DNA of 55,407 bases, filler included, from Stramenopiles sp. TOSAG23-6 (Eukaryota): assembly GCA_900128565.1 (NCBI GenBank). It is 3 parts of 3 records of this genome, joined end to end, with 100 filler letters (N's around TTAATTAATTAA, not from the genome) between each part and the next. Parts side by side here need not be neighbours in the genome. Positions count along the whole stretch, not along the records: positions 1 to 18,413 come from LT636063.1; positions 18,514 to 36,921 come from LT636064.1; positions 37,022 to 55,407 come from LT636065.1. The stretch is one strand, 5' to 3'. Both the position numbers and the translations under genes were made by a program. Below are positions 1 through 55,407 of the stretch, piece after piece (positions within the stretch are counted from its first letter, which is position 1; each line of letters starts with the position of its first letter). The notes beneath the pieces were generated by a model, which saw only the letters and a list, made by a program, of their open reading frames with translations, made no database searches and was not told where the DNA came from.

Positions 1-61
1 CGTTAGGTACAAAATTTCGTATGAAAAATAAATTCGAAATTGAAAAAAAAATAAAACATAC
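1..61 (-). mobile_element. Introner-like intron, 5' half (contig edge)
   Basis: GTATGTTTT...CATACGAAATTTTGTACCTAACG. Confidence 0.85.
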
Positions 62-1047
62 ACTAGGAGCCATACACTCAGCTTTCTGTGTCGATTGTTT
101 ACCTGAACTATTCAATTTTTCTCCATTCTGGCATAGGCGGACTTCATAATCTCCTGGTTCTGATAGTCGAAAGGACCAGTGAGTAAGACATACTGTGAAA
201 AAATATTTTTTTGTAAAATTTTTTGTTAGGTACGAAATTTCGTACGAAAAAATAAATGTATACAAAACATTGAAAAAAAATAAAACATACGCTATGCTTT
301 ATCCATACTGAAGCTACTGCACAATTTATTGTCGATGGCTTGCTTGTCTCTGTTATATTTTGATAGACTTTTGGTTCAATTAGGATGTGTCTACTGTTGA
401 TCCACTTGGCGGCACATTGAGAGGGAATTTGTGGGACTGAGTACATGTATTGTAAAAAAAATAAATTCGAAATTAGTTAGGTACAAAATTTCGTACGAAA
501 AAAAAATAAATTTGAAATTCATCATGAAAACGTACAGCTGTGCCAATATTGACGCAGATGAAACATTATAGAAATTATTATCATCTTGTTGTGAACTATT
601 ACCCGGGATATTGAATGCTATATCTGTTTCATCCATATTTTTATGCACTTCTTGTTCAAGACGCAGTGACATTGTACCATTACGAAACACTTCTCTATTT
701 GAAATTTTCGTATGACAAGTTTTATTTCTCATTAAGGTTCCGTTAATATCGTTGCACATGGTTAATGCACCAGCTTGTTCAATGTTTTTTTTAACAGGCC
801 ATCTTGCGATAGCATCGCTATTATGACCATGCGCCACAAAGAGGCCAAGCCAAAATTGTTCATCTGGTAAATGATGATTCGGAAAATCAAATGAAGCTTT
901 AGCGACTACCTTTTCGTATTCGCACACAATTTGTCGTGATAAATCTATATCAAAGCTTTCAGTGACTACAGAGTCTAGACAACACGAAAAAACCAAAAGA
1001 AGAAATAAACAATCTAAAATATAAAATGAGGCATTTAATACTACCAT
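62..1047 (-). CDS. Secreted hypothetical protein, 3'-partial; exons 1047-536, 444-291, 187-62
   Basis: Hydrophobic N-terminus (LFLLLVFSCCL). The frame stays open across two introner-type introns and runs into a third at the contig edge. Confidence 0.6.
188..290 (-). mobile_element. Introner-like intron GT..GT (preceding exon ends GC)
   Basis: Family core; ends CACAGTAT-GT; frame stays open. Confidence 0.7.
445..535 (-). mobile_element. Introner-like intron GT..AT (exon ends CT)
   Basis: Core present; ends ACAATAC-AT; joins LAQL-YSVP. Confidence 0.8.
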
Positions 1048-1333
1048 TATTTTGATACTTTCTCCAAAAATTTACGTATACATCAGTTTAACATCTATGT
1101 GCGAAAAAAACCGTTGGTGATAAAAATGATACTACGGCAATGTGATACGATTTGTGTGACTGAACGTATCTTTCGCGATATAATTGGCGTTGAGTCGAAA
1201 AAAAAAATATGAAAAATAATGAAATAACACGATAACACGAAATAATCCTTTTTTTATTACATCCTAGTTATTTTTTTTTTGTGGATCGCAGCCATCCGAA
1301 AACAAATATGAACACTCTAGCCAGTTTGAGTTT

Positions 1334-52626: not shown

Positions 52627-52984
52627 TCTTATATGAACGACTGAGTAAGACTAAATGATTGAACAATAATAATAATTGTCCAGTTATATACTTTTACGTA
52701 CACTTGCCGTTAGCCATCGCAATCATTTTACTCATCCTAACTTTTTGCGCTGAAATCATTACAACATAAGATAACAGGTTTGTCCAAGATTGTGCTCGGT
52801 CAAAAAAAGAGTAGTGTCCTCTTACGTACAAAAATTGTATACAAAAAGTAAAATTCGCGCGACTTCACTCCGAAATACACAACACGAGAAAGAACCCGGG
52901 GGAAAGACTTTACTTTTTTTTATTACGTTTTGAGGGAGAATTTTTCCCACTATTGAATTAGGTGTTTGTGATAGTGAGAGTCAT

Positions 52985-55407
52985 ATGTCGGAATCTGGTG
53001 GATTGAATGTCGAGGGATCATTCTCGTTTGGAGTTGATTCACTTGGGCAGAGCATACCAATAGATAATAGTGATGAGATTACATTTGACTTTTCCAAAAC
53101 TACTGAATTTACTTTGAAAGTTTCGGAAGACGAGGAAGAAACTGAGTCTGATTCTAGTGAATCTGAATATTCAGAAGTAGAAATAGAAGAAAAAACAGAA
53201 AAAGATATCTTATGTGAGTATATTGCAGAGTTAAACGAACTTCAACTTGAAATACAATCTAATGTTTCGATTGGCATTGTCCGAATAATTCTTAGCAAGC
53301 TATGTCGCCTCAATGCTCTTGTTTTACAAATGAGACGATCTGAAGAGGATGATAATATTTTATTTTTGACAATATTACATGTAATACGCAGGCTTCTAGA
53401 TGAGGATGACCTTGAAGGCTTAAGCTCTTGCCATATATTTTTAACATTTCTTAGAGCATCGCTCACCCATGCTACATTTCCATTAGCTTTCCATTATGTA
53501 TCTTCAATATATAAGCTAATTGATGCAAATGTTGCAAAGATGAAAACTCTTCGTAACGCAATAAAGAAATCTCGTAAGGATTCAAAGTTACCCATCAATA
53601 ATCAGAACTTTGAAGAGTTTGGTAAAGTTGTACGTTTTCATCAAGAATTTTAAATTTTTTTTCGTACCAAATTTCGTACCTAACGATTTTTTTTCTTGCA
53701 AAAAAAAAAATATATATTTTTTTACAATACTTGTTTCTAGTCGAGCCGAAGATTTGCAACAAACTATACAAGAACAGCAACAGAAAAAGTCTTTCTTGGC
53801 CCAGTTAAATAGTGTATTACGTCATGTATCTGGTTGGTTATCAAGTGATGGCAGAGAAGTACATGTTACAAATAGGTTGAGTGAAGCAATTTTAGAGACA
53901 AACGAAATCATTAGACTTGATGGCTATGGTTCAAATTTTAGTGGGTTGGGAGTCACCGGCTGCGACATGGATCTTAGTCTGAAAATCCTCCCAGGAAGTA
54001 TACACGATTTTTTGAATGATAGAGCACGAAAACAGGTTCTGGAAAAAGTAGAGGATTTGAAAAAACAACAAAATAAACCTGAAGATGGTACGGAAGCAAT
54101 ATCAAATGAAATTGATCCTGAGCAGTTACATCGGATGTTTTCAGTTGTAGTTCTCACTGCAGCAAGCTCTAAAATAATGAGTAATACACATATATTTGCT
54201 GAGTTGCCAGGTAATGATGATCTAGAAAAAAAAAATAAAGAGTTAAATGAAGATGAGGAAGTCATTAGCACAAAAATTGTATCTAGTGCTAGAGTTCCAA
54301 TTTTAAAAGTTAATATTCAAAAATTTAATATGCAATGTGATATATGTATAGATAATGAACTTGCAATTAAAAACACTTCATTGCTTCGAACGTATGTAGA
54401 TTTAGATGTTCGTGTTCGTACGTATTCATTATGAATTTTTTATCTATAATTTTTTTTTTATACGAAATTTTGTACCTAATGATTTTTTTTTTTGAAATAT
54501 TTTTTCACATTACATGACCCTTGATATTTCTTGTGAAGCAGTGGGCTCGTAGTCGAGGTGTAAAGGATGCGTCTAATTGTACGTTAAGTTCGTATACTTG
54601 GTGTATTTTAGTTATTTTCTATTTACAGACGGAAGAGGCATTTGTACGTTTTCATCAATTTCAAATTTCAATATTTTTTTACTATGAAAATTTTGTACCT
54701 AACAAAAAAAAAATTTCCGGTAAAAAAAAACAAAAATATTTTTCACAATCAATACGCTTCCTAGTATACAGAATGAAAATATACTAAAGTATGCAAATGA
54801 ATCTAAGGTAACTGTTGAAGGGCATGATGCAACATTTTGTAGTGATATAGATGTTGTGAAAAAGTATATGCAAAAATATGGTTTATCATTTCCCCCAAAA
54901 AAAAACAAAAAAAAAAATGGAACAAAACCTTCCATTGAAAATTGTAAAATTACACCATCTACAAAAAGTGTAGGTGAATTAGCGTATGGATTTTTTAGAT
55001 ATTATGCATATACATTTAATTATGAATCAAGTGTTGTTTCGATCCGATTGTATGTTTTTTTTAATTTTTTTTCAATTTCGAATTTTTTTTTGTTTTGTAC
55101 GAAATTTCGTACCTAACAAATTTTACAAAAAAAAAAAAAATTTTCACAATACATAGGTGGTGGTTCAAAAGTATATAGAAAAAAACAGTATAGTACAGAT
55201 AGTTTAAATGGTCGTCATATCCCAGGTTGGAGAATTTGTGTAGAAGATCCATTTGAGCGATCACATGATCTTGGTTCTGTAATACGATGTCGTGAAGGAA
55301 TGTATGTTTTATTTTTTTTAATTTCGAATTTATTTTTTTTTCATACGAAATTTTGTACCTAACAAATTTTTTATAATTTTTTTTGAAATATTTTTCCAAA
55401 ATACATG
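52985..55407 (+). CDS. Cid1/TUTase/GLD-2-family non-canonical poly(A/U) polymerase (3'-partial, five introns)
   Basis: YGSNFSGLGVTGCDMDL, ARVPILK, CDICIDNELAIKNTSLL, DVRVRPL..VKQWA, LSSYTW, ICVEDPFERSHDLG. Confidence 0.9.
53630..53732 (+). mobile_element. Introner-like intron GT..TT (TT/TT)
   Basis: Joins GKV-VSSR in frame. Confidence 0.82.
54418..54515 (+). mobile_element. Introner-like intron GT..AT (exon ends TC)
   Basis: Restores DVRV-R-PL; boundaries shifted left create TGA. Confidence 0.9.
54644..54753 (+). mobile_element. Introner-like intron GT..AT (3' end uncertain by one codon)
   Basis: Joins EEAF-TLPSIQ. Confidence 0.65.
55050..55154 (+). mobile_element. Introner-like intron GT..AT (exon ends TT)
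   Basis: Joins VSIRL-GGG in frame with EDPF; the AG 2 nt downstream leads to a stop. Confidence 0.88.
55302..55406 (+). mobile_element. Introner-like intron GT..AT (AT/AT) at contig end
   Basis: Full consensus copy. Confidence 0.82.

Follow-up and report, generated by a model that had tools for sequence, protein, structure and literature searches.

The window analysed here, a stretch of 55,407 nucleotides (nt) from the assembly of Stramenopiles sp. TOSAG23-6 (GCA_900128565.1), consists of three contigs placed end to end with linkers of the form N44-TTAATTAATTAA-N44 at 18414-18513 and 36922-37021. It is AT-rich, with a G+C content of 23-41% in 2-kb steps, and carries genes for CstF77 (Suf), DRC4/GAS8, UTP15, an EttA-like ABC-F protein, a MACPF protein, an Arm/HEAT-repeat protein and leucine-rich repeat (LRR) proteins. 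Introners are the leading explanation for new introns, and the genes of this window are interrupted on either strand by copies of a single introner family that are removed together with 2 nt beyond the element and mostly end in a dinucleotide other than AG. The copies are listed below with coordinates, strand, first and last dinucleotides and, in brackets, what supports them (a match to the family profile, a test of the reading frame across the junction, RNA or homologous proteins).

1..61, minus strand: introner copy cut by the window start (profile match)
188..290, minus: introner intron of 103 nt, GT..GT (frame restored only by removal of the element plus 2 nt)
445..535, minus: introner intron of 91 nt, GT..AT (profile match, frame test)
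1459..1544, minus: introner intron of 86 nt, GT..AT (profile match, frame test)
1868..2021, minus: composite introner intron with a full copy and a second 3' half, GT..AT, LRR gene (frame test)
2156..2298, minus: introner intron with a G+C-richer insert in its 5' part, GT..AT (frame test)
4021..4215, plus: two-core introner intron, CstF77 (Suf) gene, GT..AT (profile, frame, X12 record 1 with the next exon at 4216, homologues)
4493..4579, plus: introner intron, CstF77 gene, GT..TA (profile match, frame test)
7913..8005, minus: DRC4/GAS8 introner intron 4 of 93 nt, GT..AT, register ambiguous over ATG (X12 record 3, P0392/P0393)
8116..8205, minus: DRC4 introner intron 3, GT..GT (frame test, homologues)
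8351..8438, minus: DRC4 introner intron 2, GT..TT (frame test, homologues, X12 record 4)
8604..8704, minus: DRC4 introner intron 1, GT..AC (frame test, homologues)
10542..10657, plus: introner intron, GT..TG (profile match, frame test)
11416..11554, minus: two-core introner intron with a perfect 7-nt inverted terminus, GT..AT, LRR gene (frame test)
11711..11810, minus: introner intron, GT..AT (frame test)
13769..13867, plus: diverged introner intron, MACPF gene, GTAAGT..AG (frame test)
18304..18411, minus: introner intron at a contig end, 5' exon lost in the N-linker
21554..21644, plus: introner intron, Arm/HEAT-repeat gene, GT..TT (profile match, frame test)
37236..37391, minus: introner intron with A as first base (ATATGT..AT) and a mirror copy in the right arm of the inverted duplication (obeys the +2 frame rule)
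38115..38266, minus: introner intron with TTTAGGG-like repeats, GT..AT (frame test)
38560..38679, minus: introner intron, GT..AT (profile match, frame test)
39428..39518, minus: introner intron nearest to the family consensus, GT..AT (profile match, frame test)
39824..39996, minus: composite two-core intron, GTTTGT..TG, borders uncertain (fails the +2 frame test)
43000..43094, plus: introner copy cut by the centre of the inverted duplication
49436..49547, plus: introner intron ahead of the ABC-F exons, GT..AG, 5' part mirrored at 37035-37115, possible misjoin (frame test)
50285..50373, plus: introner intron, EttA-like ABC-F gene, between DEPTN and DLD, GT..AT (frame, EttA tiling)
50452..50554, plus: introner intron, ABC-F gene, between ISH and DRWF, GT..AT (frame, EttA tiling)
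51110..51223, minus: introner intron, UTP15 gene, GT..AG (frame test, homologues)
51832..51933, minus: introner intron, UTP15 gene, GT..AG (frame test, homologues)
53630..53732, plus: introner intron, GT..TT (profile match, frame test)
54418..54515, plus: introner intron, GT..AT (profile match, frame test)
54644..54753, plus: introner intron with a variant 3' end, ..AATCA followed by AT (frame test)
55050..55154, plus: introner intron, GT..AT (profile match, frame test)
55302..55406, plus: introner copy at the window end, downstream exon beyond the window (profile match)

A 25-nt core shared by the copies matches the window 27 times with at most three mismatches, while 0.00 matches are expected from 100 shuffles of the window, and a profile built from 16 copies yields 40 matches with E <= 1.4e-4 and 83 with E <= 10. 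After dropping five mirror copies in an inverted duplication, merging two-core introns and adding three weaker copies defined by their boundaries, we count 34 separate introner intron loci, i.e., 34 of the 35 introns of the window. The remaining one is an unrelated GT-AG intron at 16751-16857, and no other unrelated intron was seen in the window; outside introns, the family is represented by a core-only fragment (11032-11082) and a weak fragment (7594-7644). The computed consensus comprises GTAYGTTTT, a T-rich spacer, TTTCGTACGAAATTTTGTACCTAAC, a T/A run and TTTTYMCAATAC over ca. 85 to 115 nt and equals the string that an earlier note on this DNA, made from the sequence alone, had given for more than 30 unrelated loci. 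That note had also named 16751-16857 as the only unrelated intron, which we can confirm. Its list of loci holds as to the family, with the exception of six entries that are duplicates from the palindrome described below. Both ends are defined in 30 copies, all of which have open reading frames (ORFs) on the element's own strand at either side, i.e., lie sense to their host gene.

The similarity among copies is not confined to the splicing signals. End-to-end alignment is possible for 23 single-core copies, T-rich spacers included, with a median pairwise identity of 73% (range 50-93%), and two subfamilies have linked ends, with GTATGTTTTA paired with CCAAAATAC and GTACGTTTTCA paired with YACAATAC. 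Identical inserts after CTAAC occur at unrelated loci, once shared by the copies at 8704 and 50452 and once by those at 38679 and 49436. Because of this full-length alignment, the subfamilies and the shared indels, descent of the copies from a common source is supported over convergence on a signal. Four introns contain two cores; we considered these as proof of nested transposition and rejected the idea, as their layout is equally like a partial tandem duplication and hence not diagnostic.

The element may also be abundant beyond the window. In the metagenome DNA run X4, the summed contig depth is ca. 40,000 at place 8636 in the core vs. 4-10 in the unique bins next to it, which roughly hints at copies in the thousands but is not a count. 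Metagenome DNA contigs continue from exons into introner copies, so the elements are present in DNA. Scanning a metagenome contig collection with the core pattern retrieved one contig, L001, with one sense copy flanked by AT on both sides, and a viral contig collection scanned with the same pattern gave no match. An Rfam scan of the window returned no family, which says nothing either way on small nuclear RNAs.

Whereas the earlier note had let the introns end at ...AATAC, the reading frame needs 2 nt more: removal of the element plus 2 nt past ...ATAC restores the frame in 29 of the 30 copies with both ends defined, and in L001 the same rule gives the longest frame (47 codons vs. 34 and 13). 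With the 5' cut taken before GT, the last two bases of the 30 introns are AT (17 copies), AG (4), TT (3), GT (2), TG (2), TA (1) and AC (1). These figures combine 29 copies, 28 of which have the frame restored and 16 of which end in AT, with one additional copy that also follows the rule and ends in AT. Among the 29, 25 end in something other than AG, only 4 have GT-AG borders, and an internal AG is skipped in 7. The 5' end is GT in 29 of 30 copies, and across 22 aligned copies G1, T2, G5 and T6 are invariant with position 4 free. Each copy carries a branch-site-like box, GTACCTAAC, in which the T and the second A of CTAAC are invariant across the same alignment, and conservation of this sort is typical of the 5' and branch sites of U2-type introns; the sequence that a U2 branch-binding box would have to fit is GUACCUAAC. 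From this box to the intron end, the distance ranges from 28 to 52 nt.

Junctions at which the 2 nt on either side differ keep the left flank, which puts the canonical GT at the 5' border and confines the variation to the 3' border. At DRC4 intron 2, the retained left flank gives Leu and not Phe, and the two UTP15 junctions read Gly and not Glu and Ile and not Ser. An AT-AC (U12-like) register is rejected by these unequal-flank junctions. The first exon base is G in 12 of 29 copies and 17 of 29 introns are in phase 0; we set aside a 3-nt duplication that includes the first G of the element, which does not rise clearly above codon bias.

At the RNA level, the polyA metatranscriptome contig X12 record 3 (289 nt, with one other letter) runs over 7729-7911 and then 8005-8110 with nothing between, skipping 93 nt or exactly the element plus 2. 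Two one-sided pieces agree with retention of the left flank, with the exon of X12 record 1 beginning at 4216, which fits a cut before GT, and a piece of X12 record 4 (8438-8606) that fits a cut just before GT. Nine junctions are supported by homology in the DRC4, UTP15, CstF77 and ABC-F genes. The DRC4 homologues P0392 and P0393 (68% identical) align without gaps across all four junctions of introns that end in AC, TT, GT and AT. Three ABC-F exons tile E. coli EttA (4fin_A) seamlessly at residues 238-473, 474-499 and 500-551, neither overlapping nor leaving a residue out, and at the two introns between them (50285-50373 and 50452-50554) AT stands at either side and no register yields GT-AG. 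For CstF77, homologues align over the 4021-4215 junction, and at the two UTP15 junctions the public model P0121 and 18 homologues match introns that both end in AG. Element-to-unique depth ratios in DNA, total-RNA and polyA runs look like polyA depletion and were not used, contig depths being no valid measure.

Public gene models differ in how they deal with these introns. The DRC4/GAS8 model P0391 (7661-9454, minus strand), the one model examined across non-AG introns, shares 96% identity with the query exon. It gains or loses residues at each of the four introner junctions, is also devoid of ten residues (VRRTMELQRK) inside exon 1, and appears to be built on GT-AG sites. The public model of UTP15, with its introns ending in AG, is correct. 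Database proteins with source names that start with GSMAST32 are 100% and 96% identical to two genes of the window, its sequence is present in seawater metagenomes and metatranscriptomes, and the best named homologues of its DRC4 protein are from stramenopiles. Together with the source names, the best homologues point to a host that is a marine stramenopile of the MAST kind.

How might the 3' cut be placed? A fixed distance from the branch site or a stable hairpin could serve as well as a motif in the element. The first AG after the branch box is rejected as the 3' site, given the 7 of 29 copies that pass over an AG and the 25 of 29 that end in another dinucleotide, and so is a fixed distance from the box, which varies over 28-52 nt. 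A hairpin acting as a ruler is rejected as well: consensus structure prediction for the introner copies gave 0 pairs, four of five copies fold no better than shuffles (z from -0.07 to -1.15), and the fifth (z of -2.86) leaves its ends unpaired. Because AG, branch-box distance and a stable fold are each ruled out, we infer that the 3' cut is likely placed 2 nt beyond the conserved motif TTTTYMCAATAC by a relaxed, motif-anchored spliceosome. We propose that nearly all introns of this AT-rich marine protist are copies of one short, non-coding, high-copy element, each of which would bring its own 5' splice site (GTAYGT), branch-like box and conserved 3' end. The RNA would be cut from the first G of the element to exactly 2 nt beyond its terminal ...ATAC, presumably by the major spliceosome, with the element's own 3' motif rather than an AG setting the 3' cut. 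Most simply, the extra 2 nt would be the second copy of a 2-base-pair (bp) target-site duplication (TSD), and excision of the element with one duplicate would restore the original coding sequence.

The flanks and termini bear on how such an element might have spread. Left and right 2-nt flanks agree fully in 12 of 29 copies vs. 8.3 expected (p=0.028), with positional matches at 37 of 58 sites vs. 29.7 in shuffles (p=0.004), a modest signal that comes partly from AT being common at either side. Rare right-flank pairs coincide with the same left flank (AC/AC, GT/GT and TT/TT). The element termini are GTATGTTTT...AAAATAC; the inverted termini are conserved only as GTA...TAC (3-4 nt), extend to 7-9 nt in some copies, and are imperfect beyond 4 nt in most. 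The perfect inverted terminus that the earlier note had seen at 11416-11554 is indeed there (7 nt, GTATTTT/AAAATAC). Its wider idea of a burst of miniature inverted-repeat transposable elements (MITEs) is borne out for the introner family and not for the MITE nature, considering the short termini, the modest flank match and the absence of a transposase in the window. The joints listed for the X4 DNA metagenome are cross-joins between different repeat copies, and no clean empty-site allele was among those listed, which we take as no evidence either way. A DNA-transposon origin is weakly supported, with the rare-pair flank matches and palindromic termini favouring a DNA element with a 2-bp TSD. 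The same family could instead have spread via RNA, with an excised intron reverse-splicing into another transcript and a DNA copy of the latter recombining into the gene, a route put forward for introner-like elements of fungi. The terminal AT would then belong to the element, no TSD would exist, and the AT of the left flank would be an insertion preference. Strict sense orientation in all 30 defined copies, the location of every full copy within a gene, conserved inverted termini of merely 3-4 nt, a window devoid of transposase, an AT 3' dinucleotide in 17 of 30 copies as if carried along, and a length of ca. 100 nt, similar to that of the fungal elements, would all suit this route. The positional flank matches and the AC/AC, GT/GT and TT/TT pairs speak against it, as do the palindromic termini GTAT...ATAC with their perfect 7-nt case, a trait of DNA transposons. 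Sense orientation itself fits a DNA or an RNA route because the antisense strand has no branch box, and survival in sense only is equally expected of a DNA element inside genes. We regard spread via RNA as an unlikely, though serious, alternative to DNA transposition.

The machine that removes the introns and the nature of the element itself can be questioned in other ways. A non-spliceosomal machine guided by pairing of the intron ends, as suspected for nonconventional introns of euglenids, would account for the variable non-AG 3' border, for the complementary GUA/UAC termini and for cuts at fixed offsets (0 nt and 2 nt) from these termini, which recall the spacer rule described for Euglena (PMC12501133). 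Against such a machine stand the classic GTRNGT 5' end, invariant at positions 1, 2, 5 and 6, and the invariant CTAAC adenosine, and a strict strand bias would be unexpected if only palindromic ends counted; with no predicted consensus pairs, four of five copies folding like shuffles and the ends of the fifth unpaired, we consider it quite improbable. The 5' splice site and branch box do rank among the most conserved columns and nearly all introns of the window show the pattern, as would be seen if old, independent introns had converged on a long splicing signal and no mobile element were involved. This scenario is very improbable in our view, as homology continues through the T-rich spacers, variants are linked in subfamilies with shared indels, a pattern-free intron exists (16751-16857), cores occur twice in one intron or outside any, a bacterial-type EttA gene holds two copies at a distance of 78 nt, contigs break at copies and depth in DNA is at the level of a high-copy repeat; by the same evidence, the earlier note's reading as an introner family rather than a shared splicing signal alone stands. 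DNA elimination, as for the internal eliminated sequences of ciliates, would also be in line with the short inverted ends, the repeated 2 nt at the flanks and the exact loss of the element with one repeat. Copies are nevertheless found in the assembly, which is of an amplified single-cell type, as well as in metagenome DNA contigs that pass from exon to element, their orientation is strictly sense with splice-signal-like conservation, and the genes have long open frames in the standard code, which makes removal from DNA hardly credible.

Several points weigh against the proposed introner family with motif-anchored splicing and DNA transposition. Complete RNA junctions amount to one, in one metatranscriptome contig of depth 6.7, alongside the two one-sided pieces, and for the remaining junctions the support comes from homologous proteins and open frames; that the spliceosome does the cutting is itself an inference. 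The +2 rule fails in one composite intron with uncertain borders (39996) and one 5' end reads AT instead of GT (37391). On the side of mobility, the modest flank match owes part of its signal to the commonness of AT, no transposase domain was found in 20 translated ORFs of the window, nor a cognate autonomous element within it, and no antisense or clearly intergenic full copy was seen there, a weak test in a window with little intergenic DNA. Finally, the assembly is chimeric in places, as the palindrome illustrates, and four of six contig ends (1, 18413, 37022 and 55407) lie in or at introner copies. Taken as a whole, the introner family with spliceosomal removal of the element plus 2 nt, a 2-nt TSD and DNA transposition nonetheless strikes us as the best explanation and a probable one. 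The non-AG 3' end is its most interesting and least expected part and draws on one RNA junction together with consistent protein evidence. We lean, by a little, towards the broader view that, in an uncultured, abundant lineage of marine stramenopiles, copies of one introner have taken the place of nearly all introns, in numbers that reach the thousands, and that the splicing machinery has come to read the 3' site from a motif within the intron (...CAATAC plus 2 nt) and no longer from AG.

Beyond the introner introns, the window contains the following features:

11032..11082, plus: core-only fragment after the stop codon of the 9655-11012 gene, with direct repeats of ca. 27 nt around it (profile match)
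16751..16857, plus: unrelated ordinary GT..AG intron, ankyrin gene
43095..49529, no strand: right arm of a perfect inverted duplication, with mirror introner matches at 43123, 46237, 46671, 47042 and 47872 left uncounted

The inverted duplication spans 37022-49529, where 37022-43094 mirrors 43095-49529 with 0 nt between the arms and the centre at 43094/43095. It begins exactly at the contig start and has its centre inside an introner copy, and because of it six introner copies and several genes are present twice; an amplification or assembly chimera is the probable cause. The ABC-F gene (49547-50722) comprises the second half only, and its protein is closer to EttA (1e-75) than to yeast ARB1 (7e-31) or human ABCF1 (3e-25). 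The exons upstream of the 49436 intron resemble the N-terminus of an IP3 receptor (Ins145_P3_rec, MIR), and what joins them to the ABC-F exons is a fusion or else a misjoin that runs across two introner copies. ABC-F proteins of the EttA type are bacterial, and the two introns in this gene would therefore have been gained after its entry into a eukaryote. At 50652-50791, the last codons and stop of the ABC-F gene form a 70-nt tandem duplication. The intron at 37236-37391 with its ATATGT start could reflect an error in sequencing, an intron that is no longer active or tolerance of AT at the 5' end. Telomere-like TTTAGGG/CCCTAAA repeats are found at 38170-38240 (minus) inside an introner intron and at L001:2270-2340 in both orientations, in an intron or untranslated region.

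Around the core-only fragment, direct repeats at 10980-11130 start with GTAATAAAA and the second ends in ...ACTAC followed by AT; the fragment could represent a diverged intron that spans the stop codon of the gene at 9655-11012. The gene at 12638-14287 has a MAC/perforin domain (Pfam 4e-34) followed by a jacalin-like-looking repeat exon and is split by the diverged introner. Across ca. 15 kb (21645-36921) there is no introner, whereas neighbouring genes have one per 0.1-0.7 kb. This region holds long open frames with a coiled-coil-like look at 22516-26089 (minus), 26610-34676 (plus; 2,688 amino acids, no Pfam match) and 34874-36973 (minus), and a 55-nt unit is repeated three times at 34747-34916 beside the 34874 gene. 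Clusters of single N letters at 24818-24840, 26567-26590 and 1953-1973, some within open frames, mark low quality and frame breaks without an intron.

With this window, the known cases would gain a lineage whose introns appear to come almost wholly from a single family. If the proposed removal of these introns is true, mass non-canonical splicing would have arisen independently once more, after euglenids, Amoebophrya and Fritillaria, here with a fully canonical 5' site and branch site, and GT-AG gene models of the lineage would be wrong at most introner junctions. If the pattern is genome-wide, the protein sets of an abundant uncultured group, and analyses built on them, would be damaged in a predictable and correctable way, while the repeat also breaks assemblies. 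A 3' site choice decoupled from AG in an otherwise ordinary-looking intron would offer a natural system for studying the second splicing step.

A survey counts 1,093 introner families in 201 species (PMC12130899), with hosts that include Micromonas, Aureococcus, Chrysochromulina and dinoflagellates (PMC12130899, PMC9860276). Such surveys take annotated introns as their starting point and discard families whose splice sites are unfamiliar unless RNA evidence supports them (PMC12130899), and a family like that of the window would therefore probably be missed. No literature linking these lineages with introners or non-canonical splicing was found; the supplementary tables of the survey, which were outside the search, might list the lineage. 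Among protists with unusual introns, Amoebophrya has repeated intronic elements at non-GT-AG sites with direct repeats across the borders and inverted-repeat ends and, like the host considered here, is a marine protist with transposases absent or scarce (PMC7789003). Its many families are described with variability at both borders, inverted repeats of 8-20 nt in hairpins and direct repeats of 3-5 nt (PMC7789003), whereas the single family of the window has a 5' GT in 29 of 30 copies, a retained branch box, termini of 3-9 nt, no fold and a 2-nt repeat, i.e., none of the hairpin inverted repeats, longer direct repeats or doubly variable borders that characterise the Amoebophrya type. Nonconventional introns of euglenids share with ours the non-AG borders at fixed offsets from short complementary motifs near the ends as well as TSD-like repeats at the junctions and a suspected MITE origin (PMC12501133, PMC11282704). 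They are, however, described as being without GT, branch site and polypyrimidine tract, requiring CAG/CTG pairing and released as circles (PMC12501133, PMC11282704). The window family keeps GT and CTAAC, pairing of its ends is unsupported, and neither non-canonical borders at both ends nor a stable terminal helix was found.

In the tunicate Fritillaria borealis, the spliceosome takes non-AG 3' ends (AG-AC and AG-AT) in introns thought to be transposon-derived (PMC11282704; bioRxiv 10.1101/2025.08.15.670264). A U2-type system is thus able to evolve acceptance of non-AG 3' ends, there via duplicated U2AF subunits, in an animal host whose introns, unlike those of the window, also have a non-canonical 5' end (AG) and no near-uniform single family. 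U12 introns have a 5' end RTATCCTT, the branch consensus TCCTTAAC and a branch box 10-26 nt from the 3' end. There is some likeness, as AT before GT in 14 of 29 copies formally allows AT...AC borders and CCTAAC faintly recalls the U12 branch site, but the 5' end GTAYGT, a box 28-52 nt from the intron end and the retained left flank all depart from this type. Fungal introner-like elements are described as sense-only and genic with GT-AG borders, a stable fold and neither TSD nor terminal inverted repeats (PMC9860276); the window family is equally sense-only and genic, whereas GT-AG is restricted to 4 of 29 copies, a stable fold is absent and a weak signal of TSD and terminal inverted repeats is present.

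In kind, the window family resembles the introners themselves, which are likewise short non-coding elements copied into many unrelated genes with each copy spliced out, and whole-length similarity at unrelated loci and frame-restoring removal from a transcript were both found for the window family. Parmales sp., where one introner family accounts for >91% of intron gain, illustrates that a single family can dominate (PMC12130899). Introners of the Chrysochromulina type carry the 5' site and obtain the 3' site from the TSD, which is the layout proposed for the window family (PMC9860276). The recruited 3' site is AG in the examples of the cited papers vs. in only 4 of 29 copies here, and the duplication measures 3-9 bp in the cited introners vs. 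a putative 2 bp. In the window, a 5' site and branch box that are fully canonical go together with an almost unrestricted 3' dinucleotide, all within one dominant introner family of a stramenopile.

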